From: Burkholderiaceae bacterium
GTDB taxonomy: Bacteria; Pseudomonadota; Gammaproteobacteria; Burkholderiales; Burkholderiaceae_E
NCBI GenBank assembly: GCA_040401595.1
Contig: JBBAOE010000003.1
Span: 139,459-203,458, forward strand
Direction of reading: 5' to 3'
Length of the DNA: 64,000 nucleotides
Below the pieces are notes generated by a model. That model was not told where the DNA came from. It made no database searches and saw only the letters and a program-made list of their open reading frames with translations. A program made the position numbers and the translations under genes. Below are positions 1 through 25,084 of this stretch, in pieces (positions within the stretch are counted from its first letter, which is position 1; each line of letters begins with the position of its first letter).

Positions 1-1544
1 ACGGAAGATCCGGCGAACTCCACCCCCACCTTTTCGCCGGCCGCGTTGGTCAGCGTAGTGAACCAGCCATTGTGTGAGTCACCGGAGAGTGTCACCAGAC
101 GCTTGCCCTGCGATTTGGCAGCCGTATAGATCGCTTCGCGGTTGGTGGTGTAGCCATCCCAGGCGTCGAGGTTATACGGGATCCGCGGATTCGTTTTGGG
201 ATCCAGCAGGGCGGTCTGGGCCGGGGACAATGCGCCGGCGCCAGCAGCGGCGGCTGCAGCGGGTGTGGCGCCCGCGGCCAAGGCGGCTGCGGTCACACCA
301 AAACGGGTGGCTTTGGCCGTCAGGAAGTCCGAGATCGCCTTGCCGACCGCCGCCTGATTGGCAGGGGTTGGGCTCGCAAACGCCGCATTTTGTGCCGTGC
401 CCACGTTTGCCGGGAGCGCCATGCGGGCCATGATCACCTGGTTACCCAGGATTTGCCAGGTGGCCGTGGAGGCCTTCATGCCGTCGGTGAGCCACGTCTG
501 CTGTTCCGTGCTGATGATGCGTTGGTTCGCATCGGTTCCGGTTCCCAGGGCGGTCAGGTAACGCGTCACCCCGCCGTCTGCGTCGCCGTAGTTATCGTAC
601 TGGCGCGTTCGACCTTCGATTCGGGTATCGAGCATATGCAAGGTCATCAGGCTGCCGAAGTCAAAGCGGCGATAAATCTTGAGCAGGTTGCCGCTGGCAT
701 CCGTGCGGATCGGCATCCACTCGTGGTACGCGCGGGAGGCATTGGCCTTGCGCACAGCCCAGTCCCCTTGGGTCGCCGGGTTATGGTTTTCGGCGCCAGT
801 GACGTAGGCGTTATTGGCGAACTCGTGATCATCCCAGATGGCGATGAGCGGCATTTTGGCGTGCAAGGCCTGCAGGCTGGCGTCGCTACGATAGGTCGCG
901 TAGCGCGTCCGGTAGTCCTCGAGCGAGACGATTTCACTGGCCGGGGCCGTGACTCGGCCAAGCGTCACCGCATCGGCATTGCCATAGCCCGCTGGGTTCG
1001 AGCTGTATTCGTAGATGTAGTCGCCCAGATGGATGGCGTACTGCGCATCGGATTTGGCGGCGGCGTCATAAGCGTTGAAATATCCCTGGGAATACAGCGA
1101 GCAGGAGAACACCGCGAGTTTCACCGAAGCGACGTCGCTCTTGGGCAGTGTTCGGGTGATACCGACGGGCGAGAAGGCTCGGGTGGCGTCCAGGAATCGG
1201 TAGTAGTAGGTGGTGCCCGCGCTCAACCCGGTGACATCCACTTTGGTGGTGAAGCCTGTCTCCGGACTCGACAGGCAAGACCCCGATTTGACGATCGTCG
1301 AAAACGCGCTGTCGGTGGCCACTTCATAGGTGAGTGGGACGCTGAGGTTCGAATCGATCGACTTGGCGTGGGTCCAGAGGATGACCCGGTCGGTCAGGGG
1401 GTCGCCGCTCGCGACGCCGTAGCGATATTCCGCCGGCGTCAGGGGGGACTCGCCGCAGGCGCTCAGCGCAGCACTGGAGGCGACGACGGCTGCTGCCGAT
1501 GCGGATTTGAGGAGGAACTCGCGGCGATCGTTGGTCTTGGTCAT
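1..1544 (-). CDS. phoD: Alkaline phosphatase D family protein (PhoD), N-terminal ~514 codons; C-terminus lies beyond the left edge
   Basis: Absent from the ORF track because it has no in-window stop. The minus-strand ATG at 1544 has GGAG 7 nt upstream. It reads MTKTNDRREFLLKSASAAAVVASSAALSACGESPLTPAEYRYGVASGDP and stays open to position 1. Motifs seen: IAIWDDHEFANN and LSGDSHNGW. Twin-arginine RREFL is followed by an LSAC lipobox. Confidence 0.85.
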   Translation of the reverse strand, partial: MTKTNDRREFLLKSASAAAVVASSAALSACGESPLTPAEYRYGVASGDPLTDRVILWTHAKSIDSNLSVPLTYEVATDSAFSTIVKSGSCLSSPETGFTTKVDVTGLSAGTTYYYRFLDATRAFSPVGITRTLPKSDVASVKLAVFSCSLYSQGYFNAYDAAAKSDAQYAIHLGDYIYEYSSNPAGYGNADAVTLGRVTAPASEIVSLEDYRTRYATYRSDASLQALHAKMPLIAIWDDHEFANNAYVTGAENHNPATQGDWAVRKANASRAYHEWMPIRTDASGNLLKIYRRFDFGSLMTLHMLDTRIEGRTRQYDNYGDADGGVTRYLTALGTGTDANQRIISTEQQTWLTDGMKASTATWQILGNQVIMARMALPANVGTAQNAAFASPTPANQAAVGKAISDFLTAKATRFGVTAAALAAGATPAAAAAAGAGALSPAQTALLDPKTNPRIPYNLDAWDGYTTNREAIYTAAKSQGKRLVTLSGDSHNGWFTTLTNAAGEKVGVEFAGSS

Positions 1545-1586
1545 GTCTGGACTCCGGATAAGAGCCCGGATTAACGCAAGGCTTCA

Positions 1587-1604
1587 GTGACACCATCGTG
1601 AAAA
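1587..1604 (-). promoter_or_regulatory. Pho-box-like direct repeat upstream of phoD
   Basis: Read on the minus strand it is TTTTCAC-gatg-GTGTCAC. These are two 7-mers at 11-bp phasing, resembling the PhoB box CTGTCAT-N4-CTGTCAT. The box ends 43 bp upstream of the phoD ATG, where a -35 element would sit. Confidence 0.5.
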
Positions 1605-1729
1605 TCAAAGCCCGGGGTGCAACGCCATCGCGTTCGGTTGTTCGTCCTGACAGTACGCTCAGTCGTTATTTTTTATGAAACGGTCCTGTGCAGCAGAACA
1701 GCGGGTCTCGAGCCATGGGATCTCATGCC

Positions 1730-1747
1730 CTGTCACTGTCTTGACAT
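1730..1747 (+). promoter_or_regulatory. Pho-box-like direct repeat upstream of the btaA-like gene
   Basis: The plus strand reads CTGTCAC-tgtc-TTGACAT. It has the same orientation as the downstream gene and lies about 130 bp before ATG 1875. Confidence 0.45.
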
Positions 1748-1842
1748 GGTTGGTGTTCAGACTACTTCGAAGCGATAGCAACGGTTGATCCGATCTCGCC
1801 CGGTTATCCCCGCCATTGTTGATCGATGCCTCGACGCACTGT

Positions 1843-1872
1843 CCTGGAGAATTCTGGAGACCTCTGGAGAAT
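1843..1872 (+). repeat. Three tandem 10-bp units containing CTGGAGA
   Basis: The units are TCCTGGAGAAT, TCTGGAGACC and TCTGGAGAAT. CTGGAGA starts at 1844, 1854 and 1864, an exact 10-bp period. The last copy supplies a GGAGA Shine-Dalgarno 4 nt before ATG 1875. Confidence 0.6.
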
Positions 1873-1874
1873 TC

Positions 1875-3095
1875 ATGCAAGCGACTGATACCTCCACATT
1901 ACTTGCAGACGCCGTGTATGGGCACCGCGCGCAAGGTCATGTCGGCATTCTGGATCGACTCTTCGCGCGCTGGTTCGAGCGCTTGGTCTATACCCAAATT
2001 TGGGAAGATCCAGCCTGCGACCTCGAGGCCATGGCGGTCGAGTCCCATCATCGGATCATCACCATCGCATCGGCGGGATGTAATGCGTTGGCCTATTTGC
2101 TGGCGGATCCGGCGGAGGTGGTTGCAGTCGATCTGAATCGGGCGCATCTGGCACTGCTCGATCTGAAAGCGGGGGCGCTGCGGGCGTTCGACCATCATCA
2201 GGATTTCCTGGAAATGTTTGGCCGCGGCCATTCGAAAGCGAACATTGCACGGTTTCGCCAGCACATCGCACCGCTGCTCTCGGTCGAGGCGCGTCGTTGG
2301 TGGATGGCTCGGGATGCGTTTGGCCGACCCCGCATCAGCATGTTTACGACAGGCCTGCATCGGCATGGGCTGACTGGACGCTTCATTGGCATTGTTCATG
2401 CGTGGGCGCGCCTGCGAGGGGTTCGCCTCGAAGACTGGACGCTGGCCAAGACGCCCCAGGAACAGGCTGTCTGGTTTGATACCAAGGTCGCGCGACTCTT
2501 TGATGGTGCACTGGTCCGCCGACTTGCCGCTTCGCCTCCGGTTGTCTGGAATTTGGGTATCCCGCCGTCGCAGCATGAGGCGCTGTGCGACGGGGAGGTC
2601 CAGAGCATGGCGGGCGTATTGCGCGAGCGCGCTCGGCGTCTCGCAACGATCGCGCCGGTCGCTGACAACTGGTTTGCCTGGCAGGCATTCGCACGGCGAT
2701 ACAACGTCGAAGAGGGGCCCTTGCCGCCCTATCTGGAGGCGAAAGCCTTTGGGCTGCTGAAAACTCGGGTCGATCGATTGCAAATGGCCCATGAAAACCT
2801 GCGGGTGGTCTTGACCGGTCGTACGACCGCCAGCCTTGATCGTTTTGTGCTGTTGGACGCGCAGGATTGGATGTCAGACGATGAACTCGTTCGCCTGTGG
2901 CAAGAAATTACCCGGACGGCACGGCCAGGCGCACGCGTGATTTTCCGGACGGCCGGTGTTACATCTCCACTGGAGCGGGCATTGCCACGTGCGATCGCCG
3001 AACGTTGGCGGGCAGATCATGTCACGGCTGATCGACTGCATGCGCGCGATCGTTCTGCAATTTATGGTGGTTTTCATCTGATGCATCTGATTTGA
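1875..3095 (+). CDS. BtaA-like (DUF3419) S-adenosylmethionine:diacylglycerol 3-amino-3-carboxypropyl transferase family protein
   Basis: This is ORF 1785..3095 trimmed to ATG 1875, which has a GGAGA RBS. Motifs: RLVYTQIWEDP and ITIASAGCNALAYL (Gly-rich SAM-type), characteristic of the BtaA/DUF3419 family. The TTG at 1785 is probably not the real start. Confidence 0.75.
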   Translation: MQATDTSTLLADAVYGHRAQGHVGILDRLFARWFERLVYTQIWEDPACDLEAMAVESHHRIITIASAGCNALAYLLADPAEVVAVDLNRAHLALLDLKAGALRAFDHHQDFLEMFGRGHSKANIARFRQHIAPLLSVEARRWWMARDAFGRPRISMFTTGLHRHGLTGRFIGIVHAWARLRGVRLEDWTLAKTPQEQAVWFDTKVARLFDGALVRRLAASPPVVWNLGIPPSQHEALCDGEVQSMAGVLRERARRLATIAPVADNWFAWQAFARRYNVEEGPLPPYLEAKAFGLLKTRVDRLQMAHENLRVVLTGRTTASLDRFVLLDAQDWMSDDELVRLWQEITRTARPGARVIFRTAGVTSPLERALPRAIAERWRADHVTADRLHARDRSAIYGGFHLMHLI

Positions 3096-3097
3096 AG

Positions 3098-4270
3098 ATG
3101 CGTTTGAGCCCGGATCTGGCTGGCCACCGCCCTGGGGTGATACAAGCGGCCGGGATGGCCGATCCGATCGCTCTGCGGCCATGGATCAGCAATGCGGATG
3201 CGGTGTTGCAGATCGTGGCGACACCGTCAGGGGATGTGCCTGTCCTGATTCCAGATCGTTCTTTTAGTCTAAGCAATCGTTACGGTGCGAACTCAGAGCC
3301 GCCAACCCGGCTCGCCGAACGGGCCTGGGTTACGTGTCTTTGGTCGGGGTCAGCCGGTTATGCGATCGATGAATGGGCGGCCCGGCAGGATCCTCGCTGG
3401 GCCCGGGGCCTCAGGCCATTCGCACGGCTGACCGCCGGACTGTCCTGGATGCTGGGCCCGTGGCGGGGAGCGGTTCAGGTCGGGAGCTGGCCTTTATCGA
3501 CCAGTCTTCGCGAAACGCTGCAGGTGGTGGATTTGCTCGGGGTGCTCGATACTGCCATCGAGCGCTTTCCAGACTGCCCCATTGCGCTCCGGCATGTGTT
3601 TGCGGACAGCCCGCCCGAGTTGCTTGAAGCCCTGACGCAAAGGGGCTTTCGGGCGCTTCCCGCCCGCGTGGTCTACGACCTCGACGCTACTCAGGTCTGC
3701 AAGCCCAAGGCCTCTCATCTGAAGCGCGACCTCGCCCTGCTGGCGCGTTCAGACTTGACCGTGATCGCAGATTCCGACTTCACGCAAGAAGACATCGAAG
3801 CTGCGTTGCGCATGTATCAGGGGGTCTATCGACGCCGCCACAGTTTGCGTAATCCTGACTATTGCGCCGGTTTCATCCAGTGGACCCGGCAGCGCGGCTT
3901 GATTGAGTTGCTCGGTTTGCGTTCTGCAACAGGGGAATTACGGGCCTTCGCCGCCCGGCACGATCAGGGGGCGACGACGAGTGTGCCACTGCTTGGCTAC
4001 GATCTCGAGGCCGACCGTCGCGATGGACTCTATCGCCAACTGGTCGCGGCTCTGGTGCGTGAGGCTGGCGTTCGGAACCAGAGATTCGATTTCTCCAGCG
4101 GCGCTGGCGACTTCAAGCGTAAGCGCGGATTTGAACCACGACTGGAAATGACCATGCTGCGCGCGCCGTCCCAGTCGCTGCTGCAATGGCCTGTCGGGCT
4201 GGCCTTACGTCTCGCGGCAGCGGGAACATCGTTTCTGAGTATGGAACGGTTGATCGCCGCCGGTGCCTGA
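3098..4270 (+). CDS. GNAT-fold acyl/aminoacyl transferase, FemAB/CelD (BioF2-like) type
   Basis: ATG 3098 lies 3 nt after the upstream TGA (3093-3095). The C-terminal LYRQLVAALVREAG..FDFSSGAGDFKRKRGF resembles the FemAB/CelD-type acetyltransferase domain. Confidence 0.6.
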   Translation: MRLSPDLAGHRPGVIQAAGMADPIALRPWISNADAVLQIVATPSGDVPVLIPDRSFSLSNRYGANSEPPTRLAERAWVTCLWSGSAGYAIDEWAARQDPRWARGLRPFARLTAGLSWMLGPWRGAVQVGSWPLSTSLRETLQVVDLLGVLDTAIERFPDCPIALRHVFADSPPELLEALTQRGFRALPARVVYDLDATQVCKPKASHLKRDLALLARSDLTVIADSDFTQEDIEAALRMYQGVYRRRHSLRNPDYCAGFIQWTRQRGLIELLGLRSATGELRAFAARHDQGATTSVPLLGYDLEADRRDGLYRQLVAALVREAGVRNQRFDFSSGAGDFKRKRGFEPRLEMTMLRAPSQSLLQWPVGLALRLAAAGTSFLSMERLIAAGA

Positions 4271-4297
4271 ACGATTCGAGTTCAGTAGGATCCAGAC

Positions 4298-5230
4298 TCA
4301 GGCTGGGACCAGTAGCGCTCTTCGTTCCAGAATCTCGAATTCTTCGCCGCTCTGGCTTCCGGGTTTGCAATGCAGGATCTGCAACTCACCCGCATGCGTC
4401 TCCACGAGCGCAGTGAGGCTTTCAACCCAGTCCCCGTCATTGCAATACAGGATCCCATCAAGATCGTGAATGGCCGAGCGGTGAATGTGTCCGCACACGA
4501 CACCATCGAAGCCACGCCGACGCGCTTCCCCCGCCAGGGCCTGCTCAAAATTTGAAATGAACGAGACGGCGTTCTTGACCTTGTGCTTGAGGTATTGCGA
4601 GAGCGACCAGTACGGCTGACCGAGGTGATGCCGGAGTCGGTTGTAGTGGCGATTCAGCCATAAGGTGACGGTATAGGCGCGGTCACCCAGGTGTGCAAGC
4701 CATCGCGCATGGCGCATGACACCATCAAATTCGTCGCCATGCACGACCCATAAACGCCGTCCGTCCGCGGTCACGTGAACGGTTTCGGTAACGACTTCGA
4801 TCCCGCCGAACGCAAGACCGCCAAATTGCCTGGCCGCCTCGTCATGGTTACCGGGGATGTAGACGACCCGCGTCCCTTTACGGGCTTTGCGAAGCAGTTT
4901 CTGGATGACATCGTTGTGCGCCTGCGGCCAGAACCAGCGACGCTTCAGCGCCCATGCATCAACAATGTCACCGACCAGGTAGATTGTGTCTGCTTCGTAG
5001 TCGCGCAGAAACGCGAGCAGGGCCTCCGCCTGACACCCTGCGGTTCCGAGGTGAATGTCGGAGATGAAGACGGCACGCAGAGCATTGGGGGCAGCCAGGC
5101 TGTCGCCCTCGGAGGGTGTTAGCTGCGCCTGGCGTCGGTTTCCTGATCCGGCGCCGTGCTCAGAGCCCTCCAACAGGAGCTCATGGGCGATCAGATCCTT
5201 GAGCAGAGGCTGAGCGAGGGATGCATTCAT
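4298..5230 (-). CDS. Metallophosphoesterase of the LpxH / PlcP (phospholipase C) type
   Basis: Calcineurin-like motifs are present: VFISDIHLG, YLVGDIVD, IPGNHDE, VVHGDEFD and VCGHIH. Start is ATG at 5230. Confidence 0.8.
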   Translation of the reverse strand: MNASLAQPLLKDLIAHELLLEGSEHGAGSGNRRQAQLTPSEGDSLAAPNALRAVFISDIHLGTAGCQAEALLAFLRDYEADTIYLVGDIVDAWALKRRWFWPQAHNDVIQKLLRKARKGTRVVYIPGNHDEAARQFGGLAFGGIEVVTETVHVTADGRRLWVVHGDEFDGVMRHARWLAHLGDRAYTVTLWLNRHYNRLRHHLGQPYWSLSQYLKHKVKNAVSFISNFEQALAGEARRRGFDGVVCGHIHRSAIHDLDGILYCNDGDWVESLTALVETHAGELQILHCKPGSQSGEEFEILERRALLVPA

Positions 5231-5272
5231 GCCGGTTCCAGTTTGCCTGTGCCGGTATTAAACGGAACGCCT

Positions 5273-5290
5273 TTGACGGGATCATGACAA
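5273..5290 (-). promoter_or_regulatory. Pho-box-like direct repeat upstream of the PlcP-like gene
   Basis: The minus strand reads TTGTCAT-gatc-CCGTCAA. It ends 43 bp upstream of ATG 5230, the same spacing as at phoD. Confidence 0.5.
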
Positions 5291-5299
5291 CTGATGGTT

Positions 5300-6193
5300 T
5301 TAGGTTGGTTGTTGGTTTTTTGCGTTGTCCGGCAGAACCATCAGTGCCTGCCCCATCTGGATTCGCTGCCCTGACTGAATACCGTGCGCTAGGCGAAAGC
5401 CTTTGGGCGCAAACACGATGATGGTGGAGCCATGTTCGAACCAGCCCAGTTCTTCGCCCTTGCCAAATGCGTGAGCGCATGGAATTTCGTTGGGGCCTTT
5501 CCAACGCAGGTGCATCAGGATATTGATTGCATGAAGGCGGATGCTCGCAACCAGAACGGCGGCTACCGGGACGATTGCCAGCGGATGATTGGCTGCGCCG
5601 ATTCGGGTTCTGAGAACAGCTCGTTCGTTTTTGCAGAACAGACGCTCGACCCGCTTGAGAGCGATCGGGTTGACATTCCAGACGTCACCGCTGAGATAAG
5701 TAACGTGATCCAGTTGTCCATCGTAGGGGGCATGGAAGCGGTGATACATCGAGGAAGTCAATCTCAGGGTGACATAGGTCCCGTCGACAAACGGGCTAAT
5801 GTCCTGGGAAGGTCCGAATAATTCTCGAATTGAGTATGGATAGCCCTTGGCCTGAAAGACCTCTATCCCCCGTACATCTCCACAGGCGCCCACGATTGCA
5901 TCGCATGGACTGCTGAGCGTATCGGGATCATGATCGACGCGCCGGGCCCCGGGCTTTAGTTCCCGGATGAAGCACTCGCGCAAACTGTTGAACCGTTGCT
6001 GACGGGCTTCCGAGAGATCGAGATCTGTGAAGACTCGCCAGACGGCAATGGAAAATCGCGTCAGTAGAGGGCTTCGGATCGCGCTGTATCGACCCATCCA
6101 CTGCGTTAGCAAGATCCGCGGGATTCGGTTGGTCAGCAGAAAATTCAGGTCTTCCTGAAGAAAAAGACGATCACGCAATCTGGAGAGCTTCAT
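5300..6193 (-). CDS. Phosphatidylserine decarboxylase family protein (pyruvoyl-dependent)
   Basis: Motifs: MYHRFHAPYDG, SGDVWNVNP and C-terminal GWFEHGSTIIVF, which carries the G-S-T self-processing site typical of Psd proenzymes. Confidence 0.8.
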   Translation of the reverse strand: MKLSRLRDRLFLQEDLNFLLTNRIPRILLTQWMGRYSAIRSPLLTRFSIAVWRVFTDLDLSEARQQRFNSLRECFIRELKPGARRVDHDPDTLSSPCDAIVGACGDVRGIEVFQAKGYPYSIRELFGPSQDISPFVDGTYVTLRLTSSMYHRFHAPYDGQLDHVTYLSGDVWNVNPIALKRVERLFCKNERAVLRTRIGAANHPLAIVPVAAVLVASIRLHAINILMHLRWKGPNEIPCAHAFGKGEELGWFEHGSTIIVFAPKGFRLAHGIQSGQRIQMGQALMVLPDNAKNQQPT

Positions 6194-6243
6194 CGTTTCG
6201 TCAAATCCCAGTGTTATAAAACAGTGACAACATTGCGGAGGCG

Positions 6244-7902
6244 TTGAACATCATGGAAGCTTTAGCCATGTCTGCGTTGGCTCTCGGTACCCTGGCTGCA
6301 GGTTGGCCGGCCGCCTCGCAGCGAATTGCGCTGTCGCGGGCCAAACACCGCTCGCTGGCGGGTCACTCGAGAATGGCCAAGCGAGTGGCGTCGCTGATCC
6401 CTGGATACAGCTACGACGAGACTGGTTTTTTCGCGGCCGATGATGCATCCCCAGAAATCGTGGCGCGGCGACGCGCTGGTTTTCTCGATCTCTGCCAGAC
6501 GCTCGGAACGCGCCATGCCAAGACCATCGCCATGAGCGATCAGGCGCGCGACTATCTTCCCGATATGCAATTCACCGGTCGTTACCGGGTACCGTTTCAG
6601 TTCAGCCCGTACCTGCGCAGTCATCTTAAGCTGGGCAGCTTTGTGCAGTCGTCCGCTGGCGTGACGGTTGAGGATCTGGATGGCCAGAGATTCATGGATC
6701 TCACTGGTTCTTACGGTGTCAATGTATTTGGCTATGATTTCTATAAAGAAACGATTGCCGAAGGCGTTTCTCGCGTGGCTGAGCTGGGGCCAGTGCTGGG
6801 CGCCTACCATCCGGTCGTTCTGGATGTCATCAAGCGCCTGCGCGTCATCTCCGGGCTTGAGGAGGTGAGCTTCCACATGTCGGGCACCGAGGCGGTGATG
6901 CAGGCCGTGCGCGTTGCCCGTTACCGGTCCGGGCGGACGCATCTGGTCCGATTCTGCGGCGCGTATCACGGCTGGTGGGAGGACGTGCAACCTGGCCCGG
7001 GTAACCCCTTGCCGCCCCGACAAACCTATACGCTGCAGGACCTCTCTGAGCGGTCGTTGCGTGTGCTTGAGACGCGGCGCGATATTGCCTGTGTGCTGAT
7101 CAATCCGCTGCAGGCACTGCACCCCAACGCCAGCGCGCCTGGCGATTCGACCCTGGTCGACAGTTCGCGTCGGGCCGGATTTGATCGGGCCGCCTATGCG
7201 TCGTGGTTGCGTGAACTGCGTCGAATTTGTACCGCACGCGGTATCGCGCTGATTTTTGATGAGGTCTTTTTGGGGTTCCGGCTGGCACCGGGTGGTGCGC
7301 AGGAGTATTTCGGCGTGCAGGCGGATCTCGTCACCTACGGCAAGACGCTCGGCGGCGGCCTGCCGGTCGGTGTCGTGTGCGGCAAGCGCGAGTGGATGCA
7401 ACGTTTCAATGAGCAGCATCCGGCCGATCTCTGCTTTGCGCGCGGGACCTTCAACGCGCATCCACATGTGATGGGCGCAATGTTGTCGTTTTTGGAGCGA
7501 CTCGAAACGCCCGAGGTCCAGGCGATTTATGCTGATCTCGATAACACTTGGAACCGACGTGCGCAGGAGCTCAATGAGCGGCTCCGACAGGCTGGCGCTC
7601 CGGTGCGGGTCACGAATCTTTCGACGGTCTGGACGGTGCTCTACGACTCCCCGTCGCGCTACAACTGGATGTTCCAGTTCTACTTGCGGGCCGAAGGCTT
7701 GTTGCTCAGCTGGGTCGGCAGTGGCCGATTGATTTTCAGTCTGAACTATCACGACACTGATTTCGAAGAAGTGGCCGAGCGCTTTTGTCGCGCCGCACAG
7801 GCGATGCGACGCGACGGCTGGTGGTGGGAAGGATCGCAACTGAGCAATCAGCAGATTCGACGCACCCTGTTGCGGGAAATGCTGGGTCGGCTGCGCGCTT
7901 AA
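6244..7902 (+). CDS. Class-III (glutamate-1-semialdehyde aminomutase-like) PLP aminotransferase with an N-terminal extension
   Basis: Motifs: HMSGTEAVMQAVRVAR, FDEVFLGFR and YGKTLGGGLP (PLP lysine). At 552 aa it has about 100 extra N-terminal residues that begin with a hydrophobic stretch. The start is uncertain: TTG 6244, ATG 6253 or ATG 6268. Confidence 0.85.
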   Translation: MNIMEALAMSALALGTLAAGWPAASQRIALSRAKHRSLAGHSRMAKRVASLIPGYSYDETGFFAADDASPEIVARRRAGFLDLCQTLGTRHAKTIAMSDQARDYLPDMQFTGRYRVPFQFSPYLRSHLKLGSFVQSSAGVTVEDLDGQRFMDLTGSYGVNVFGYDFYKETIAEGVSRVAELGPVLGAYHPVVLDVIKRLRVISGLEEVSFHMSGTEAVMQAVRVARYRSGRTHLVRFCGAYHGWWEDVQPGPGNPLPPRQTYTLQDLSERSLRVLETRRDIACVLINPLQALHPNASAPGDSTLVDSSRRAGFDRAAYASWLRELRRICTARGIALIFDEVFLGFRLAPGGAQEYFGVQADLVTYGKTLGGGLPVGVVCGKREWMQRFNEQHPADLCFARGTFNAHPHVMGAMLSFLERLETPEVQAIYADLDNTWNRRAQELNERLRQAGAPVRVTNLSTVWTVLYDSPSRYNWMFQFYLRAEGLLLSWVGSGRLIFSLNYHDTDFEEVAERFCRAAQAMRRDGWWWEGSQLSNQQIRRTLLREMLGRLRA

Positions 7903-8105
7903 GTTGACCAAGCGCAGCCTCTATCGTATTTGGCGAGGGCTGCGCTCTGTTGCGTAAGCGGTGCGGTCTTCTCCGGGGCAGAACGGCCATTAGACAAGGC
8001 CGGCGCTTACGGCCTCAGCACCCAGACTTCAGATGTCTGTCGCGACTTCGTCGTTCCGTCCCGCTGTCCCGTGCTGTGACGTTCCAGGGGGGCCGCGCTG
8101 CGTGT

Positions 8106-8828
8106 TCAGGCGTGCCGATTGGACGGGTCGGTCACGTGGTCCATCGGGTCAATGCGCTGCCCCCGCAACAGAAAGAGCGGGGCCGTGTGGTACATCTTGA
8201 TGTCATGAAACGGGTCGGTGATGATCTTGAATGCCCAAGCGATCGCTGTTTTGGCGTCTCGGATCACGACCAGTTGTGCAACCCGGAACAGCAGGCCGCC
8301 AACCCCGATCGCGAACCAGACAAGACCGACCGAATGCCAGAACTCTGACATGGTGGTCCAGGCTGGGAGTGCACCAAACAGGTCCGGCACGAACCAGACG
8401 ACCAGGGGGCTCGCCGCCCACAATCCCATCAATACCACCTTGCGCATCAGGTTGTAGCCCACCTTGATTTCTTCCTTGTGCTCGTGGGTCGCTTGATTCA
8501 CCTCGTCGTAGCCTTTGGGCTCGAAGAAGAAATGTCCAGCCTGCCGACTCGTCATCGACACGCCCCATGCCAACAAGGCGGCATAGGCCGGGTCCACGAA
8601 CAAGAGCGCGTACGCCGTGACAAAGCACAGCGCGCTCAGGAGATGGAGGCTCTGGTTGATTCGGCAATGATGGTAGTAGCGATGATCGTCCCAGCGCAGG
8701 ACCGCGAGCGATTCAAAAAACTCTTTCACGTGGTTACCATCAAAAAGAATGACCTCAGGGTCTTCGGTCACAGTTGACAAAATCCAGCCGCTTGCCGCGA
8801 GCGCACTGCTTAGGGTGTGCCGCCTCAA
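8106..8828 (-). CDS. Polytopic membrane protein of unknown function (His-rich motif)
   Basis: It has several hydrophobic helices and a YYHHCRINQSLHLLSALCF motif, followed by AGHFFFEP. I could not place it in a family with confidence. The start (TTG 8828) is uncertain. Confidence 0.55.
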   Translation of the reverse strand: MRRHTLSSALAASGWILSTVTEDPEVILFDGNHVKEFFESLAVLRWDDHRYYHHCRINQSLHLLSALCFVTAYALLFVDPAYAALLAWGVSMTSRQAGHFFFEPKGYDEVNQATHEHKEEIKVGYNLMRKVVLMGLWAASPLVVWFVPDLFGALPAWTTMSEFWHSVGLVWFAIGVGGLLFRVAQLVVIRDAKTAIAWAFKIITDPFHDIKMYHTAPLFLLRGQRIDPMDHVTDPSNRHA

Positions 8829-8861
8829 ACGCTGCCATAAGGCTCATCTTGTCTAGGATTT

Positions 8862-8890
8862 GTGACATCTTGCTGACAGAAAAATGACGA
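8862..8890 (-). promoter_or_regulatory. Triple phased Pho-box-like array upstream of the membrane-protein gene
   Basis: The minus strand reads TCGTCAT-tttt-CTGTCAG-caag-ATGTCAC, three 7-mers at exact 11-bp phasing. Confidence 0.55.
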
Positions 8891-8917
8891 ATTGATGTCA
8901 TTTCTCGGTAGCATCGA

Positions 8918-8935
8918 CTGTCATCACATTGTCTC
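8918..8935 (+). promoter_or_regulatory. Pho-box-like direct repeat upstream of the glycosyltransferase gene
   Basis: The plus strand reads CTGTCAT-caca-TTGTCTC, with an additional ATGTCAT half-site at 8895-8901. It overlaps the TTG 8929 given in the ORF track, which argues for ATG 8959 as the true start. Confidence 0.4.
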
Positions 8936-8958
8936 AGTCCGCTTGCAGAATTCGGCTC

Positions 8959-10239
8959 ATGCCCGATGAAATCGCAGCTCTGTCCGTGGAATCCGATGGT
9001 GCGTCTGCGCGGCCCTTGCGGATCGCCTTCGTGACCGAGACCTACCCGCCCGAAGTCAATGGCGTGGCGATGACGCTGGCAGAACTCGTTCGACGCTTGC
9101 ACGCGCGACATCACCAGATTGAATTGATCCGGCCACGTCAGGGACATGAGGTTGCCGCACCGAAGTCCCCCGATTCCGATGGGGCGATCCTGGGTCATGG
9201 CCGGGCGCCCATTCGAGAAGTCCTGGTGCGTGGCATCCGGATTCCCCGCTACAGTCAGTTGAGGATGGGGCTACCCGCCAAAGGGGCATTGCTCCGGACA
9301 TGGACGACCCAACGTCCAGATGTCGTGCATATCGCGACCGAGGGGCCCTTGGGATGGTCAGCCCTGCAGGCTGCTCGAACCTTAAAGGTGCCGGTGAGCA
9401 CCGATTTCAGAACGAATTTTCATGCCTACAGTCGCCACTATGGGATGCGCTGGTTGCATAAGCCCATCATGGGGTACCTGCGCCAATTTCATAATCTCGC
9501 TCACAGGACTACGGTTCCGACCAAGACCTTGATGGGGGAGTTGTCGGCGTGCGGGTTCGAACGTCTGGTCGTGGTTGCCCGTGGGATTGATGCAGAGCGT
9601 TTTGATCCCCGACATCGCTGTATGGCACTGCGCCAGCGTTGGGGTCTGAGCCCGGATGATTTCGCAGTTCTGTATGTGGGTCGGCTGGCAGCTGAAAAAA
9701 ATCTCGAACTCCTCGCCCATGCCTTTGAAGCCATTGCAGTGGTGAACCCGCGGGCCCGCTTGATTCTGGTGGGCGACGGCCCGATGCGCTCGGCACTGCA
9801 GGCGCGTTTGCCGAACGCACTGTTCTGCGGGCAGCAGATGGGTCACGATCTTGCCCGCTGTTACGCCAGTGCCGACTTGTTTCTGTTCCCGAGTAAGACG
9901 GAAACGTTTGGGAATGTGACGGTCGAAGCGATGGCGAGCGGTTTGCCGGTGGTTGCTTTTGCAGACGGGGCTGCGCTCGAGTTGATCCGGCCCGGTCAGA
10001 ATGGCGCAAGCGTTGCGCTTGACGACGATGCGGGCTATGTCAGTGCGGCGACTCAACTTGCAGTGGACTCTGACGCCTGTCGGGCCCTGGGAGCAGTTGC
10101 ACGCGAGACAGCGTTACAACTTGATTGGGAGACGATCGTCGATCGTTTCGAAGTGGTGATTCGTTCTGCCGCTCACAGCGGGTTCGGGTCCGTTCCGACG
10201 GGAACGCTCAGTGCGCCCCGACCGATACCATCACGTTGA
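8959..10239 (+). CDS. GT4-family glycosyltransferase (Agt/SqdX-like glycolipid synthase candidate)
   Basis: The N-terminus reads RIAFVTETYPPEVNGVAMTL. The retaining GT-B motif is FPSKTETFGNVTVEAMASGLPVV (E-x7-E). Confidence 0.85.
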   Translation: MPDEIAALSVESDGASARPLRIAFVTETYPPEVNGVAMTLAELVRRLHARHHQIELIRPRQGHEVAAPKSPDSDGAILGHGRAPIREVLVRGIRIPRYSQLRMGLPAKGALLRTWTTQRPDVVHIATEGPLGWSALQAARTLKVPVSTDFRTNFHAYSRHYGMRWLHKPIMGYLRQFHNLAHRTTVPTKTLMGELSACGFERLVVVARGIDAERFDPRHRCMALRQRWGLSPDDFAVLYVGRLAAEKNLELLAHAFEAIAVVNPRARLILVGDGPMRSALQARLPNALFCGQQMGHDLARCYASADLFLFPSKTETFGNVTVEAMASGLPVVAFADGAALELIRPGQNGASVALDDDAGYVSAATQLAVDSDACRALGAVARETALQLDWETIVDRFEVVIRSAAHSGFGSVPTGTLSAPRPIPSR

Positions 10240-10678
10240 TGACGCCTGCGCGTTCGAATCTCAGACCCATCGAGTAGTTGCGGCCCCACTCCAATGGGGC
10301 TTTTAGACCCTTGAGTAGCAGATGGTATTCGCCGGCCTTGAACGCCATGTCGGCGCCTGCAAGCACCTGAATTGAAGATAGGGCTGGTGCACTGGCGTCC
10401 GGCCCACCGCGCAGTTCGACGCGGTCGGCCAGGGTGGTGTAGGCAGATAACAGACGATCATTTTTCGTGATGGATTCGAGAATCAGATAGATCGGTGCGT
10501 CGCGGGCTTGCGGCTCCGAGGCCTCGCCCCAGGGGTGCACGATGGTAAAACCGTCGGCGTAGTACTCGTGCGACTCGGCCGAGACTGCGGCCAGCGAGGC
10601 CAGAATCAACAATGCCAGTCGGGCACCGAGCCTAATCATGGGGTTCATCAAGGTCTTGGTAGCCATCGGAGAAGTCAT
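10208..10678 (-). CDS. Periplasmic PCu(A)C-like (DUF461-like) protein
   Basis: It has a Sec signal peptide (LASLAAVSA) and a small beta-rich mature part. YHLLLKGLKAPL is reminiscent of the PCuAC core, but the Met ligands are absent. ATG 10678 overlaps the upstream stop (ATGA). Confidence 0.45.
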   Translation of the reverse strand: MTSPMATKTLMNPMIRLGARLALLILASLAAVSAESHEYYADGFTIVHPWGEASEPQARDAPIYLILESITKNDRLLSAYTTLADRVELRGGPDASAPALSSIQVLAGADMAFKAGEYHLLLKGLKAPLEWGRNYSMGLRFERAGVINVMVSVGAH

Positions 10679-11298
10679 CCCGAAAATTGAATTGAATAGC
10701 CCCAGGAGTCCAGGCGCTGGGGGATCGCGTTAAACGCGAGCGTGACCCGCGTTGTGCCCTGGTTCACTGGTACTTCGTGCAGGAGAGAACTCGGGAACAG
10801 CACCAGATCGCCAGCGGCAGGCAAGGGACCCGCCCATTTCTCGGCGTTGAATGGACCTAGTTGGGTCTTGTCATGCATGTTGCTGAACACAAAATCGCGC
10901 CCGCCGAGACTGCGAATGAAGAGCGTATTCGCTGAGGCGTGGCATTCGCTCAGGTAGAGCACCCCAGAGATAAAGCAGTTCGCATGGTTGTGAACCGATT
11001 GCCGACCCCCGTGGCGCAGAACGTTGACCCACAATTCCTTGATGTGCCAGGTCAGAGGCTCACCGAACAGATGAATGCCAAACTCCACCAGTCTTGGCTG
11101 TAGGGTGACTGCAAGCTCTTCAAGGAGCTGGTCTCCACCCGGGTTCAGGATCGTGGTGTGGGTCAGTTCAGCCGATCGTGGATTTGCCTGAGCAGCCTCG
11201 GGTGCGAACCGCTCGCGCAGCGCAGTGACCCGCTCGGGCGCGACGGCCTTCTCCACACGCATGAATGGGGTCGGAAACAGCGGAATGATGTCGGGCAC
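10675..11298 (-). CDS. Putative 2OG-Fe(II) oxygenase-like protein (TIGR02466-type)
   Basis: Motifs: FPTPFM at the N-terminus, SVHNHANCFISGVLYL and LVLFPSSLLHEV. GTG start at 11298. Confidence 0.6.
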   Translation of the reverse strand: MPDIIPLFPTPFMRVEKAVAPERVTALRERFAPEAAQANPRSAELTHTTILNPGGDQLLEELAVTLQPRLVEFGIHLFGEPLTWHIKELWVNVLRHGGRQSVHNHANCFISGVLYLSECHASANTLFIRSLGGRDFVFSNMHDKTQLGPFNAEKWAGPLPAAGDLVLFPSSLLHEVPVNQGTTRVTLAFNAIPQRLDSWGYSIQFSG

Positions 11299-11361
11299 GA
11301 TCGGGGTTCGCTTCGTTGCTGTGGGCTAAGTTCTCAGGGATCGGTGATCCGTTTTCAGTGA

Positions 11362-12363
11362 TCAGGCCGGCCAGCCAACGATCACGGCGATTCGCGCCAA
11401 TGACCAGTAGGCGGCAATCGCCCCGATCCCGTAGAGCGCGGGCACTTTGAGTTGCGCCGCGAGTTTGGTGCGAACCAGCAGCAGGGTCAAACCCCAGGCC
11501 AGGGCCACCACCAGCAACTGGCCAGCCTCAACGCCCAGATTGAAGGTCAGTAGTGCCATCGAGACATGTTGTTCAGGCAGGCCAATTTCCTTCAAAGCGC
11601 CTGCGAACCCGAGACCATGAACAAGTCCAAATACAAAGGCAACCAGCGCCGGCCAGCGCCGGGTCCAGGTCTCGCGTTGGTAGAGCGCTTCGGCGCTGAC
11701 CAGGACGATCGACAGGGCAATCGAAGCCTCGACGGGCGGGGATCGCAGCACCAGGAGTCCGAGCGCACTGGCTGCAAGGGTCACGCTGTGTGCGAGCGTA
11801 AACGCCGTGATCGTCGCAATCAGGCGTTTACGAAATCCAACCAGAAACAAGAGGCTGATGACAAAGAGCAGATGATCGAAGCCGGTCAGGATATGTTCGA
11901 TCCCGAGTGAAAAATAGGCGGTAGCCACTTCGCTGCCGGCTCTCTCGTCCTTGGCGCTGCCAAAGAGCTGGACTTTGGGCTGTGCGCTCGTCAGAGTTAC
12001 CACTTGACGATCACCGCTTCGCCAATAGATCCGAACGATCGCGGCGGAATACGCTTTACCGACGCCCTGGATCGATAACATTCCGGCGAGCCCCTTGGGC
12101 CCACACTGGATCAGTTGTTGATCACCCGCGCACCCTTCGGGCCAGCTCGGGCTCAGATCCTCCCCGATCGGGCGGCCCCCCTTGCCGGCGGCGCCCCAGG
12201 ACCAGATGAACTGACCCGGTGCGACTTCGCGCATCGTCATTTCGGCCATGGTCAGCTCATGGGCGTGGGCCACTGAAACACCGAACCCTACCAGGGCGAC
12301 GAGGAGCATCAGGCGTTTCAGAAGCCATTGCGCCAGGGCGCTGAGCCCAGAGTTTGGCGCCAT
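11362..12363 (-). CDS. HupE/UreJ-like metal-transport membrane protein with an N-terminal periplasmic domain
   Basis: The signal peptide ends AHA|HE. The C-terminal half carries GFDHLLFVISLL, AFTLAHSVTLA and GLVHGLGFAG. ATG 12363 overlaps the upstream TGA by 1 nt. Confidence 0.7.
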   Translation of the reverse strand: MAPNSGLSALAQWLLKRLMLLVALVGFGVSVAHAHELTMAEMTMREVAPGQFIWSWGAAGKGGRPIGEDLSPSWPEGCAGDQQLIQCGPKGLAGMLSIQGVGKAYSAAIVRIYWRSGDRQVVTLTSAQPKVQLFGSAKDERAGSEVATAYFSLGIEHILTGFDHLLFVISLLFLVGFRKRLIATITAFTLAHSVTLAASALGLLVLRSPPVEASIALSIVLVSAEALYQRETWTRRWPALVAFVFGLVHGLGFAGALKEIGLPEQHVSMALLTFNLGVEAGQLLVVALAWGLTLLLVRTKLAAQLKVPALYGIGAIAAYWSLARIAVIVGWPA

Positions 12364-13241
12364 CAAGGCTTCACCTCTTCTTCGCGAATCTTGTACTTCT
12401 TACCCATTTCGCGAACCGCATTCGTACTGAGTTGGGCCATGGTGTCGTCGCGCCAATCCTGATAGATCGCGTCTTTGTTCTTGTCGAACTCGGCAGGCAC
12501 ACCAGGCTTGATTTCCTCTAGCTGTATCACCCGCAGCCCATCGGTACTTCCGATCAACTGCCAGACGCCAGGGGTCGACTTTTCAATGGCTTCGGTAAAC
12601 TCTGCCCCGTAGCTTTGCACCAGATTTTGCCGGGGGCGGTCCTTGAAGACCCGCAAGCTGCTTTCGGCGTCGATTTTCCCCTTGCCATTGAGCGCGGCAA
12701 CGAACTTCGTCAGGGCCTCAGGCGATCGATCACTGGTGACTACTGCTTCGAGAAAATTAAATCGTATTGGCGTGTCGTAGCGATCACGTTTGGATTCAAA
12801 CCATTTGCGAACGCCGGCTTCATCAATCTTGGGAAGGGTGAGTCCAGATTGGGTCACGCTCAGGGACTTGAAAATGATCCGGTCGCGGATTGCCGAATCG
12901 CCCCGGTCCAGACCCAGCGCCAGGCCTTCGCGATAGAGCACTTCGTTATCGACCCATCGATCCAGGAGTGTTTTCAGTTCGGCCTCGCTTGGCTCGCGCT
13001 TCAAGCCGCCGGTGAAAATGTCGTGGGCTTCTCTCTTGACCGATTTCGAGATCGTGATCGTTTGGGGGTCGTCCTTGTCAAGACTCAAGGTGTGGTCAAC
13101 GCCAAACACCAAAGCACCCAGCACCATAAAATGCAGCAAGGGTTCACGCAACATGCGGGACAGGGGGCCGTCTGTGCGGTTCGTCGAGGAGGCCGAAGCA
13201 GCACCTGGGACTGGGGCGTTTTGAGGATCCATGGAATTCAA
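12363..13241 (-). CDS. Membrane-anchored PpiC/SurA-like peptidyl-prolyl isomerase family protein
   Basis: EPLLHFMVLGALVFG forms an N-terminal anchor, and the rest resembles rotamase-type proteins that I recall as frequent neighbours of HupE-like genes (from memory). Alternative start is ATG 13232. Confidence 0.5.
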   Translation of the reverse strand: MNSMDPQNAPVPGAASASSTNRTDGPLSRMLREPLLHFMVLGALVFGVDHTLSLDKDDPQTITISKSVKREAHDIFTGGLKREPSEAELKTLLDRWVDNEVLYREGLALGLDRGDSAIRDRIIFKSLSVTQSGLTLPKIDEAGVRKWFESKRDRYDTPIRFNFLEAVVTSDRSPEALTKFVAALNGKGKIDAESSLRVFKDRPRQNLVQSYGAEFTEAIEKSTPGVWQLIGSTDGLRVIQLEEIKPGVPAEFDKNKDAIYQDWRDDTMAQLSTNAVREMGKKYKIREEEVKP

Positions 13242-13248
13242 CGAGGGT

Positions 13249-18994: not shown

Positions 18995-19477
18995 TTGAGC
19001 CATTCCACCGAATCCCTTGCTCTGACCGTCAACGGTCGCGCCGTGAAGGTCGACGTCGATCCCCGGACCCTGTTGGTTCAGTTGATCCGCGACCAACTTC
19101 ATCTCACTGGCACCCATGTTGGCTGCGACACCGCTCAGTGCGGAGCGTGCACCGTGCATCTCAACGGCCGCGCGATCAAGTCCTGCTCGATCCTCGCCGT
19201 GCAGGCACAAGGTGCCGACATCACCACGATCGAGGGGCTCAGTCACGACGGTGAACTCCATCCCATGCAGGCTGCGTTTCGCGAATGCCACGGGCTGCAA
19301 TGCGGTTTCTGTACGCCAGGCATGGTCATGTCGGCGGTGCAATTGCTCGAGGATCATCCGAATGCCAGCGAGCAGGAAATCCGCGAGGGTCTTGAGGGCA
19401 ACATCTGTCGGTGCACGGGTTACCACAACATCGTCAAGTCGATCCAGCGCTGCCAGGCTGGCCACGCCACTGCCTAA
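18995..19477 (+). CDS. coxS: Aerobic-type Mo-hydroxylase small subunit, (2Fe-2S)-binding
   Basis: Motifs: [20 protein letters not shown] and [12 protein letters not shown] 18995 with GGAGA 5 nt upstream gives a typical protein of about 160 aa. The ORF track starts earlier, at GTG 18935. Confidence 0.9.
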
Positions 19478-19491
19478 TAGGGAAAGCAATC

Positions 19492-21855: not shown

Positions 21856-21937
21856 GCTTGAGGCTTCGTTCGTCGGATATCAACGATACGGTCTGCGGGC
21901 TTGACTAAAGCGCCCGCAGGTCTACAGGAGAACTGAG

Positions 21938-22732: not shown

Positions 22733-22838
22733 GCGTCCCGGAGGGAAATCACCGGGTTGTTGAGCGGGTTCCCCTCACGGGGCGCCTGCTTGACCATCCG
22801 GCCTTGGCCCCCTCCGCTGCCTGCACCTTCCACCGCCC

Positions 22839-22880
22839 CGGCGGCTCTGGCATGCTTGCCGGGCCGCCGTTTCTTTTTTT
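22839..22880 (+). terminator. Intrinsic terminator or attenuator between coxM and coxD
   Basis: A GC-rich stem pairs CGGCGGC (22839-22845) with GCCGCCG (22863-22869), with inner GGCA/TGCC pairs. It is followed directly by TTTCTTTTTTT (22870-22880). Confidence 0.55.
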
Positions 22881-22891
22881 GAGTGTCATTC

Positions 22892-23839: not shown

Positions 23840-23882
23840 TTTTTTGTGACGGATTCGTTCTAACTGATTCGTCCATAAGATA

Positions 23883-25064: not shown

Positions 25065-25084
25065 TCTGAAAGGACACGAGAGTC

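Follow-up and report, generated by a model that had tools for sequence, protein, structure and literature searches.

Three phosphorus-sparing routes to membrane lipids have been described: the PlcP/Agt route to glycolipids, the BtaAB route to a betaine lipid and the OlsBA route to ornithine lipid. In the BtaA/BtaB system of Rhodobacter sphaeroides and Sinorhizobium meliloti, which stands in a phosphate-starvation context, the first enzyme belongs to the DUF3419 family and the second, BtaB, trimethylates the amine of diacylglyceryl-homoserine (DGHS). The PlcP-Agt system is found in SAR11, Pseudomonas aeruginosa and Burkholderia cenocepacia, and in the last of these plcP-agt-dagK has been linked to phosphate-starvation glycolipids (bioRxiv 10.1101/2023.05.30.542800). 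Here we analyze positions 1875 to 10239 of a 64 kb stretch of a freshwater betaproteobacterial genome (the window, with the remaining genome outside our view). A first-pass annotation had taken the seven genes in this region to be one pathway to one phosphorus-free head group: a btaA-like gene, a gene for a GNAT-type transferase, a plcP-like gene, a paralog of phosphatidylserine decarboxylase (Psd), a class-III aminotransferase gene, a gene for a His-rich membrane protein that resembles DUF962 and a family 4 glycosyltransferase (GT4) gene. All seven open reading frames (ORFs) are present, at coordinates equal or close to those first annotated.

We propose, with a probability of about 0.5, that the region is a phosphate-starvation island of the PhoB type for phosphorus-free membrane lipids and that it is built from three units that occur separately, namely the plcP-like gene (unit 1), the btaA-like and GNAT genes (unit 2) and the Psd-like, aminotransferase, DUF962-like and GT4 genes (unit 3). 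The island probably makes hitherto undescribed phosphorus-free lipids. It shares with the PlcP-Agt system a PlcP-like gene, an upstream Pho-box-like site and a GT4 in the same island, and differs from it in that the GT4 is not beside plcP but belongs to the Psd/aminotransferase/DUF962 module, and in the absence of dagK. It shares with the BtaA/BtaB system the DUF3419 enzyme and an operon logic in which the stop codon of btaA is overlapped or directly followed by another gene; this gene encodes a class-I S-adenosylmethionine (SAM) methyltransferase there and a tandem GNAT here. In the literature searched we found no description of a btaA-Fem-like pair or of a Psd/aminotransferase/DUF962/GT4 module (the term DGHS was confounded by an unrelated acronym), and the lipid remodelling described for Methylosinus mentions none of the genes of the island. 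The earlier statement that no described pathway uses the extra enzymes agrees with the literature searched.

Distribution of the seven genes

The genomic neighborhoods of the island genes were collected from two starting points. The GNAT family alignment, searched against 185,579 species genomes, gave 69 GNAT loci, and 75 non-redundant loci were clustered; a metagenome scan with an alignment of the aminotransferase gave at least 585 relatives, and the best 80 loci were examined for neighbors within 10 kb. Most of the GNAT loci belong to freshwater Burkholderiales (Limnohabitans, Polynucleobacter, Piscinibacterium and strain AAP99), Ferrovibrio and many Verrucomicrobia, and a DUF3419 gene is directly upstream of the GNAT gene in 62 of the 69, in Burkholderiales, Ferrovibrio and Verrucomicrobia alike. 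A plcP-like gene is found 10 kb or less from the btaA-GNAT pair in 28 of the 75 clustered non-redundant loci, and the other neighbors of the pair elsewhere are alkaline phosphatase, OlsB-like and Agt-like GT4 genes. The genes of unit 3 occur among the btaA-GNAT loci only in close relatives of the window (L002, L003, L007 and L009) and in L027, L034, L039, L041 and L044, and the four-gene module is missing from about 50 of the 69.

The aminotransferase loci give the reverse picture. Psd was found in 78 of the best 80, DUF962 in 77, GT4 in 59 and plcP in 24, with DUF3419 in a single locus and the GNAT in none. Roseateles, Variovorax and a Verrucomicrobiales metagenome-assembled genome (MAG) keep the four genes in one fixed order, with GT4 and DUF962 divergent, DUF962 and the aminotransferase convergent, and the aminotransferase and Psd divergent, and have no btaA or GNAT there. 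The other neighbors of unit 3 in the 80 loci are MFS proteins (13), UDP-glucose dehydrogenase (9), OlsB and PhoX (7 each) and Ppx and Ppk (5 each), and olsA also occurs. Unit 3 is a very widespread, self-contained four-gene module that would work without btaA. The co-conservation within the modules and their separate occurrence point to two tight sub-clusters and not to one seven-gene unit, and the simplest reading of the island is a set of phosphorus-sparing lipid units that function separately under shared regulation and on a shared supply of diacylglycerol (DAG). Both units are present in cultured strains: the btaA-GNAT pair in Piscinibacterium candidicorallinum LMG 29480, strain AAP99 and Limnohabitans sp. 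JirII-29, the four-gene module alone in Roseateles amylovorans and Variovorax, and both together in Polynucleobacter bastaniensis.

These counts bear directly on the single pathway that had been proposed, in which DAG would be converted to DGHS, the Psd-like enzyme would decarboxylate DGHS to a diacylglyceryl-aminopropyl ether, and this product would then be transaminated, oxidised, N-acylated and/or glycosylated. The free alpha-amino acid of DGHS resembles phosphatidylserine and would be a chemically ideal substrate for a Psd paralog. The seven genes are contiguous in the window, in L002 and L003 and, in another order, in the Verrucomicrobial MAG L039; units 2 and 3 are also neighbors in L027, L034, L041 and L044, and they adjoin each other more often than chance would give, in varying gene orders. 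Such contiguity counts against a full separation of the units and leaves room for a real metabolic coupling of units 2 and 3. The module nevertheless stands alone in Roseateles, Variovorax and Verrucomicrobiales, most btaA-GNAT pairs do without it, and DUF3419 and the GNAT are nearly or wholly missing around it; in addition, an amine acylated by the GNAT would block a pyruvoyl decarboxylase, so that the two enzymes would compete and not act in series. We therefore consider one head group made by all seven enzymes unlikely, and as a single co-conserved pathway the seven genes fail. The decarboxylation and transamination of a homoserine head group, which the gene set had been read to imply, are not required by the gene distribution and would be facultative at best. 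What is supported is one part of the proposal: the locus is a real candidate source of new phosphorus-free lipids, as two modules plus PlcP and not as a seven-step pathway.

An extended phosphorus-free lipid island was observed in a freshwater Burkholderiales MAG (L041, 7052-19720; L044 and L034 are similar). Its order is phosphoglucomutase, btaA, GNAT, a 193-aa protein, olsB-like, plcP, Agt-like GT4, UDP-glucose dehydrogenase, Psd-like, aminotransferase and DUF962.

The features of the window region are listed in the table. The long ORFs at 390-1574 (+), 1899-2792 (-) and 6262-7911 (-) were rejected as high-G+C antisense artefacts opposite phoD, btaA and the aminotransferase gene, and an Rfam scan of the window gave no matches.

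Table. Features of the island in window coordinates, with the evidence for each
Feature	Coordinates	Strand	Evidence
PhoD-family alkaline phosphatase with Tat signal peptide, truncated by the left window edge	1..1544	-	PhoD E 1.9e-91; PhoD_N E 1.5e-26
Pho-box-like site CTGTCACTGTCTTGACAT, phoD/btaA divergent intergenic region	1730..1747	+	consensus match
btaA-like; predicted S-adenosylmethionine:diacylglycerol 3-amino-3-carboxypropyl transferase, DUF3419	1875..3095	+	PF11899 E 1.4e-98
Fem/MprF-like tandem-GNAT transferase (putative), translationally coupled to btaA	3098..4270	+	PF13480 in homologs, AlphaFold2 fold, context
PlcP-like metallophosphoesterase; LpxH-related, predicted phospholipase C releasing diacylglycerol	4298..5230	-	Metallophos E 1.4e-13
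Pho-box-like site TTGTCATGATCCCGTCAA, upstream of plcP	5273..5290	-	consensus match
Psd-family pyruvoyl decarboxylase paralog	5300..6193	-	PF02666 E 2.7e-53; TIGR00163 149 bits
Class-III aminotransferase, GSA-aminomutase-like	6253..7902 (longest ORF from TTG 6244)	+	Aminotran_3 E 7.7e-33
Imperfect 11-12-bp inverted repeat AGCGCAGCCTC ... GAGGGCTGCGCT	7911..7946		read from sequence
DUF962/Mpo1-like His-rich polytopic membrane protein	8106..8714 (longest ORF to TTG 8828)	-	weak PF06127 match
Three Pho-box-like sites, DUF962/GT4 divergent promoter	8862-8879, 8873-8890, 8918-8935	-, -, +	consensus match
GT4 retaining glycosyltransferase, non-Agt type	8959..10239	+	GT4 domains E 1e-30

The btaA-GNAT pair

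The assignment of the first gene of unit 2 to the BtaA/DUF3419 family, made in the first-pass annotation, was confirmed by the profile search, in which the match spans positions 4-383 of the 385 of PF11899. The protein is 44% identical over 395 aa to BtaA of Rhizobium leguminosarum and 45.6% identical to the S. meliloti protein; overall its identity to BtaA of the rhizobial btaA-btaB operons is 44-47%, and btaB adjoins btaA in both of these. Homologs carry the name 3-amino-3-carboxypropyl transferase in the JGI annotation, and the PDB holds no sequence relatives of the protein. A rough neighbor-joining tree places the GNAT-linked BtaAs of Proteobacteria as the sister group of the classical BtaAs, with deep branches for those of Verrucomicrobia. 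Because the GNAT-linked BtaAs are spread over the diversity of the family and form no derived subclade, BtaA most likely keeps its usual reaction here. From the degree of identity, the BtaA-like enzyme would move the 3-amino-3-carboxypropyl group of SAM to DAG, and it is therefore most likely a producer of DGHS.

In the rhizobial operons the next gene overlaps btaA and encodes BtaB, and in the window the GNAT fills the BtaB slot. The junction is as it had been described, with the btaA stop codon TGA at 3093-3095 followed by ATG at 3098, and the claim that no BtaB is present agrees with a tblastn search with two rhizobial BtaB proteins, which gave no matches in the 64 kb window. The presence of the GNAT instead of BtaB leads to a predicted product that is an N-aminoacyl or N-acyl homoserine lipid and not diacylglyceryl-trimethylhomoserine (DGTS). 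The GNAT would modify the free alpha-amine of DGHS, an acceptor that we infer, as we do the donor, and the product of unit 2 is most likely a new betaine-lipid derivative in which the DGHS amine is aminoacylated or acylated.

The GNAT had been called FemAB/CelD-like. The window protein does not carry this name by its own profile matches, but PF13480 (Acetyltransf_6) is matched by 7 of 13 members of its family (best E 1.4e-9), and the predicted fold agrees. The AlphaFold2 (AF2) model has a mean confidence (pLDDT) of 81.6, and in a Foldseek search the lysyl- and alanyl-phosphatidylglycerol synthase domains of MprF, FemX and the tRNA-dependent peptide synthases Sba18/Sbb17 came out on top (4v36, 5vrv, 4v35, 9j8s, 7z6a and 9wqy, with E from 6e-10 to 1e-8 and template-modelling (TM) scores of 0.43-0.58), with tandem GNATs that use acetyl-coenzyme A (acetyl-CoA) ranked about 100-fold worse. 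Invariant basic motifs of the family are SHxKRD and SSGAGDFKRKRG, with H207, K209 and R210 invariant, and the family comprises 718 clusters at E < 1e-30 among 1.84 billion representatives. FemX aminoacylates a primary amine and MprF aminoacylates a lipid. The tandem-GNAT fold of MprF and FemX/FemAB/MurM is the best structural match of the modelled window GNAT, and the window enzyme would act on a lipid head group as MprF does and form an amide on a primary amine as FemX does. It differs from them in that it has no sequence-profile similarity to the solved members and no flippase domain, and its putative acceptor is a phosphorus-free, ether-linked homoserine lipid.

The GNAT-fold clade of the MprF/FemX type uses aminoacyl-tRNA for the aminoacylation of peptides and lipids (PMC2922099). 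The likeliest reaction of the window GNAT would be the transfer of an amino acid from aminoacyl-tRNA to the amine of DGHS, to give N-aminoacyl-DGHS; on the strength of the structural model we hold aminoacyl-tRNA to be the donor only tentatively, at somewhat less than even odds. The same architecture could also work without tRNA, with an acyl group taken from acyl-CoA or acyl carrier protein (acyl-ACP), and would then give N-acetyl- or N-acyl-DGHS, an anionic and phosphorus-free stand-in for phosphatidylglycerol. The fold search does return acetyl-CoA tandem GNATs (Eis2, VipF and the clavulanate tandem GNAT, E about 1e-7), the PF13480 annotation is that of a plain acetyltransferase domain, and the surroundings of the pair showed neither a tRNA gene nor a paralog of an aminoacyl-tRNA synthetase. 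By our own reading, R-x-x-G-x-Y (R307-Y312, with G310, Y312 and R313 invariant) stands at the CoA-pyrophosphate position of the GNAT fold, but the canonical Q/R-x-x-G-x-G/A motif is not intact. The approximately 20 top structural matches, moreover, are nearly all aminoacyl-tRNA-dependent, with the 100-fold advantage given above, and the ATP-grasp peptide ligases of a sister clade suggest peptide-type chemistry. An acyl-CoA or acyl-ACP donor is accordingly a possibility that we regard as doubtful.

In that sister clade an ATP-grasp ligase precedes the GNAT or is fused to it, and a Rieske/VanA-type oxygenase follows it or is likewise fused (for example L083, 1-3277); P0399, P0408, P0414, P0420, P0322 and P0353 are proteins of this three-enzyme system. 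These ATP-grasp partners make it plausible that the partner enzyme of the family installs an amino-acid-like group. Family members of 750-780 aa had been considered as BtaA-GNAT fusions of the Rosetta-stone kind and were rejected, as they are ATP-grasp-GNAT fusions.

Several observations weigh against an aminoacyl-DGHS made in place of DGTS. The window GNAT protein has no Pfam or NCBIfam matches even at E ≤ 10, and the profile of its family gave only chance matches against PDB sequences. With TM scores of about 0.45-0.58 the fold matches are of moderate quality and do not tell an aminoacyl-tRNA donor from an acyl-CoA donor. Two Rhizobiales MAGs (L042 and L048) carry both BtaB and the GNAT, and 19 Verrucomicrobia-type loci carry a divergent class-I methyltransferase that is only weakly BtaB-like; this coexistence means that the GNAT may add to N-methylation and not replace it.

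The methyltransferase-like gene of the Verrucomicrobia-type loci codes for 220-260 aa and is divergent from btaA in all Verrucomicrobia-type btaA-GNAT loci (L005 7910-8683, L039 7565-8224 and 17 others). Its product resembles BtaB in the SAM-binding region only, with 30% identity there, and could be an analogue of BtaB.

PlcP and the four-gene module

The product of 4298-5230 had been annotated as a PlcP-type metallophosphoesterase, and this family placement holds. It matches the LpxH equivalogs of NCBIfam at 54 and 47 bits, where the cut-offs are 134 and 190, and to be related to LpxH and yet far under the LpxH cut-offs is the pattern of PlcP. It is 50% identical to its S. meliloti homolog and 57% identical to its P. 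aeruginosa homolog (both annotated LpxH), which we take to be the characterised PlcP proteins SMc00171 and PA3219. As judged from family membership and context, it would cleave phospholipids to DAG and so supply units 2 and 3.

The first-pass annotation had placed the first two enzymes of unit 3 in the Psd and class-III aminotransferase families, and both placements stand. The Psd-like protein matches the E. coli enzyme (7cnw, E 1.5e-27; also 6l06), with which it has in common PF02666, the motifs PxD and YHRxHxP, the N-terminal membrane-binding region and the Gly-Ser-Thr self-cleavage site (EHGST in the translation). Since the motifs and the self-cleavage site are intact, it should be an active pyruvoyl decarboxylase, predicted to act on a lipid-bound alpha-amino acid. 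It passes the general cut-off of TIGR00163 and does not reach the specific bacterial Psd equivalogs. Unlike E. coli Psd, the window protein is a divergent paralog outside a housekeeping psd context, and it forms a divergent pair with the class-III aminotransferase in the 78 loci counted above; its fixed place beside the aminotransferase and DUF962 suggests a specialised paralog.

The aminotransferase is probably shorter than the 552 aa first given. Its likely start is the ATG at 6253, which makes it 549 aa long as in an ortholog, and its N-terminal extension measures about 125 aa instead of about 100. The extension consists of a hydrophobic segment followed by a basic motif, LSRAKHPSLAGHSRMAKR, and is invariant in 8 orthologs from two phyla, as is the lysine that binds pyridoxal phosphate, K367 in YGKTLGGGLP. 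The C-terminal tail is Trp-rich, and the conserved extension and this tail together suggest a monotopic membrane enzyme. The closest solved relative is the MycA domain of mycosubtilin synthase (6kfm, E 8e-53, residues 132-530), and further relatives are glutamate-1-semialdehyde (GSA) aminomutases, beta-transaminases and aminoglycoside C-6' aminotransferases. The MycA aminotransferase domain converts a beta-keto-acyl thioester to a beta-amino-acyl thioester. The window enzyme differs from it in that it stands alone, has the conserved extension as a putative membrane tether and has no carrier protein nearby.

The third protein is a His-rich polytopic membrane protein, as had been described, and a DUF962/Mpo1-like one by a weak match. 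Homologs are typically 202 aa long, so that its start is probably the GTG near 8714, which leaves about 202 aa, and not the TTG at 8828 of the longest ORF. More than 8000 homologs at 64-73% identity were found, one of them named DUF962 in UniRef, and one close homolog has a precomputed PF06127 match. The motifs WDDHRYYHH, GHFFFEP and DPFHD are invariant, and the AF2 model has about 5 long helices. The architecture recalls yeast Mpo1 (DUF962), an Fe(II)-dependent 2-hydroxy fatty acid dioxygenase that is also a His-rich polytopic membrane protein; the window protein is a putative metal-dependent oxygenase. A pair of a putative oxygenase and an aminotransferase suggests oxidise-then-aminate chemistry, and pairs of an oxidase and a class-III aminotransferase, such as those of the aminoglycoside C-6' aminotransferases, follow a similar logic, except that the partner here is a DUF962 membrane protein.

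The GT4 had been taken for an Agt-like glycolipid synthase, and this reading did not hold. Its orthologs, at 47-59% identity, adjoin DUF962 in L027, L039, L076-L078 and the 59 metagenome loci noted above, whereas it is only 30-33% identical to the Agt-like GT4s beside plcP in other loci; L041 and L044 have an Agt-like GT4 and lack the GT4 of the module. Its best NCBIfam models, GpgS (145 bits against 480) and a monoglucosyldiacylglycerol synthase (MGlcDAG synthase), are both below their cut-offs. GpgS is a UDP-GlcNAc:PG transferase (PMC12713373). Because UDP-glucose dehydrogenase and plcP are frequent neighbors, the GT4 would start unit 3 by making glucuronosyl- or glucosyl-DAG. Oxidation of the head group of this DAG-glycolipid may fall to the DUF962-like protein and a keto/amine exchange to the aminotransferase, in line with the amination of a beta-keto acyl group by the solved relative closest to it; with a decarboxylation by the Psd-like enzyme, at whatever stage, the product would be an amino-substituted phosphorus-free lipid. 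Unit 3 thus probably modifies a DAG-based glycolipid, as far as the gene content allows us to judge. Just downstream of the GT4 is an oxygenase of the 2OG-FeII_Oxy_5/TIGR02466 type (10675-11298, -), which may belong loosely to the Pho island; a distant relative with 34% identity adjoins Psd and PlcP in a Verrucomicrobiales locus (L078, 6888-7499).

The scheme for unit 3 has points against it. A pyruvoyl decarboxylase needs an alpha-amino acid and a simple glycolipid offers none, which leaves a chemical gap. The match of the DUF962-like protein to PF06127 is sub-threshold (14.9 bits against a gathering score of 24, E 0.03), and its AF2 model found no solved relatives with Foldseek. More generally, for every gene of the island the substrate is one that we infer from sequence.

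Two further readings deny that the extra enzymes make new lipids. In the first, the island would yield only DGHS or DGTS (with BtaB encoded elsewhere), glucosyl- or glucuronosyl-DAG and, through the second Psd, phosphatidylethanolamine (PE), and the GNAT, aminotransferase and DUF962 genes would be unrelated to these. Pho-regulated genes often cluster, the units do occur separately, and with 64 kb of genome in view a btaB is possible elsewhere. We nevertheless consider this reading quite improbable: the 2-bp btaA/GNAT junction and the pairing of these genes in most loci across phyla speak for a joint role, Psd, the aminotransferase and DUF962 stay together in 77-78 of the 80 loci in a fixed gene order, and the membrane-binding segments of the aminotransferase and the Psd-like protein fit lipid substrates. 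In the second, the genes would serve the modification of exopolysaccharide, lipopolysaccharide or a secondary metabolite. GT4 and PF13480 proteins (CelD-like proteins and the FemAB associated with PEP-CTERM) are often found in polysaccharide systems, and a Bac_transf sugar transferase follows the btaA-GNAT pair in L005 and L006. Genes for polysaccharide export or polymerization, however, do not recur near either unit, and BtaA and the PlcP, OlsB, Psd and Agt-like neighbors point to glycerolipid head-group chemistry, which makes a non-lipid role highly improbable. We therefore keep to separate lipid units under common control.

Phosphate-starvation signals and significance

That the locus serves lipid remodelling under phosphate starvation, as the first-pass annotation had it, is borne out by Pho-box-like sites, by a divergent phoD and by the neighbor genes. 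The phoD gene, which is divergent from btaA and had been missed in the earlier ORF list because the window edge truncates it, encodes a Tat-exported phosphatase according to its translation and Pfam matches. We scanned the whole 64 kb window for CTGTCAT-N4-CTGTCAT with up to 3 mismatches. The scan gave 10 matches against 4.7 expected, of which 6 fall in 1730-8935, and by our own arithmetic the 5 sites in the intergenic DNA that belongs to the cluster (about 900 bp) compare with about 0.07 expected. One of the five is between phoD and btaA, one is upstream of plcP and three are between DUF962 and GT4.

The same scan of other loci, with random 280-bp windows giving a background of 2%, found sites upstream of 6 of 61 btaA genes and 6 of 28 plcP genes, and in the DUF962/GT4 intergenic region of 5 of 8 orthologous loci. 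The site upstream of plcP is kept in L002, L007 and L009, and better sites (1-2 mismatches) are found in L026 and L048. No sigma-70 consensus promoters were found in 1400-10800 (2.8 expected), in itself an uninformative count that fits activator-dependent promoters. Against these signals it must be set that every Pho-box-like site of the window carries 3 mismatches to a consensus taken from E. coli. We consider from the sequence signals that the island is likely to be controlled by phosphate starvation through a Pho regulon. The earlier claim that all the genes share Pho-box-like promoters holds for btaA, plcP and DUF962/GT4, and not for the 50-bp promoter region of Psd and the aminotransferase, which has no Pho-box-like sites at up to 3 mismatches.

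This Psd/aminotransferase intergenic region (6194-6243) contains a direct repeat, CAGTG-TTATAAAA-CAGTG, and may be under different regulation from the other parts of the island. The inverted repeat that separates the converging aminotransferase and DUF962 genes could form a hairpin that terminates transcription in both directions; a terminator scan gave results at chance level and passed it over for lack of a T-run.

Other genes of the window lie to the right of the island. The run at 10208-15915 (-) encodes a PCuAC copper chaperone, the 2-oxoglutarate (2OG) oxygenase, a HupE/UreJ_2 membrane protein, a PpiC-type rotamase and an 888-aa membrane protein with a spermidine-synthase domain. These genes were considered as members of the system and rejected, as they are syntenic in the close relatives L002 and L003 only and are absent from more distant loci. 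At 19411-26071 (+), a large subunit of a molybdenum hydroxylase (CoxL/xanthine-dehydrogenase-like) is followed by AAA (CoxD-like), VWA CoxE-like and XdhC proteins, which are unrelated to the island. At 31677-33629 (-) there is a 650-aa fusion of histidine-phosphatase (His_Phos_1) and APH-type phosphotransferase domains.

For bacteria of waters and soils poor in phosphorus, the replacement of phospholipids by phosphorus-free lipids is an adaptation of major importance, with effects on the susceptibility to antibiotics and phages as well. The locus points to two enzyme sets beyond the known toolkit that are conserved and apparently Pho-regulated. In its most specific form our proposal is of two undescribed classes of phosphorus-free lipids, a tRNA-dependent aminoacyl-DGHS and either an amino-substituted DAG glycolipid or a phosphorus-free analogue of the phosphatidylserine-to-PE conversion, with the Psd-like enzyme perhaps also decarboxylating DGHS where both units are present; in this full detail we regard it as speculative and rather unlikely. 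The four-gene module, with thousands of homologs, could explain some of the "unidentified aminolipids or glycolipids" of polar-lipid profiles, as well as keto- and amino-glycolipids seen under phosphate stress. The btaA-GNAT pair would tie tRNA-dependent or acyl transfer to the synthesis of betaine lipids, and its main home is the abundant bacterioplankton of fresh waters (Limnohabitans, Polynucleobacter and Verrucomicrobia). If the aminoacyl-DGHS proposal is true, this lipid would be the phosphorus-free counterpart of lysyl- and alanyl-phosphatidylglycerol in freshwater Burkholderiales and Verrucomicrobia.

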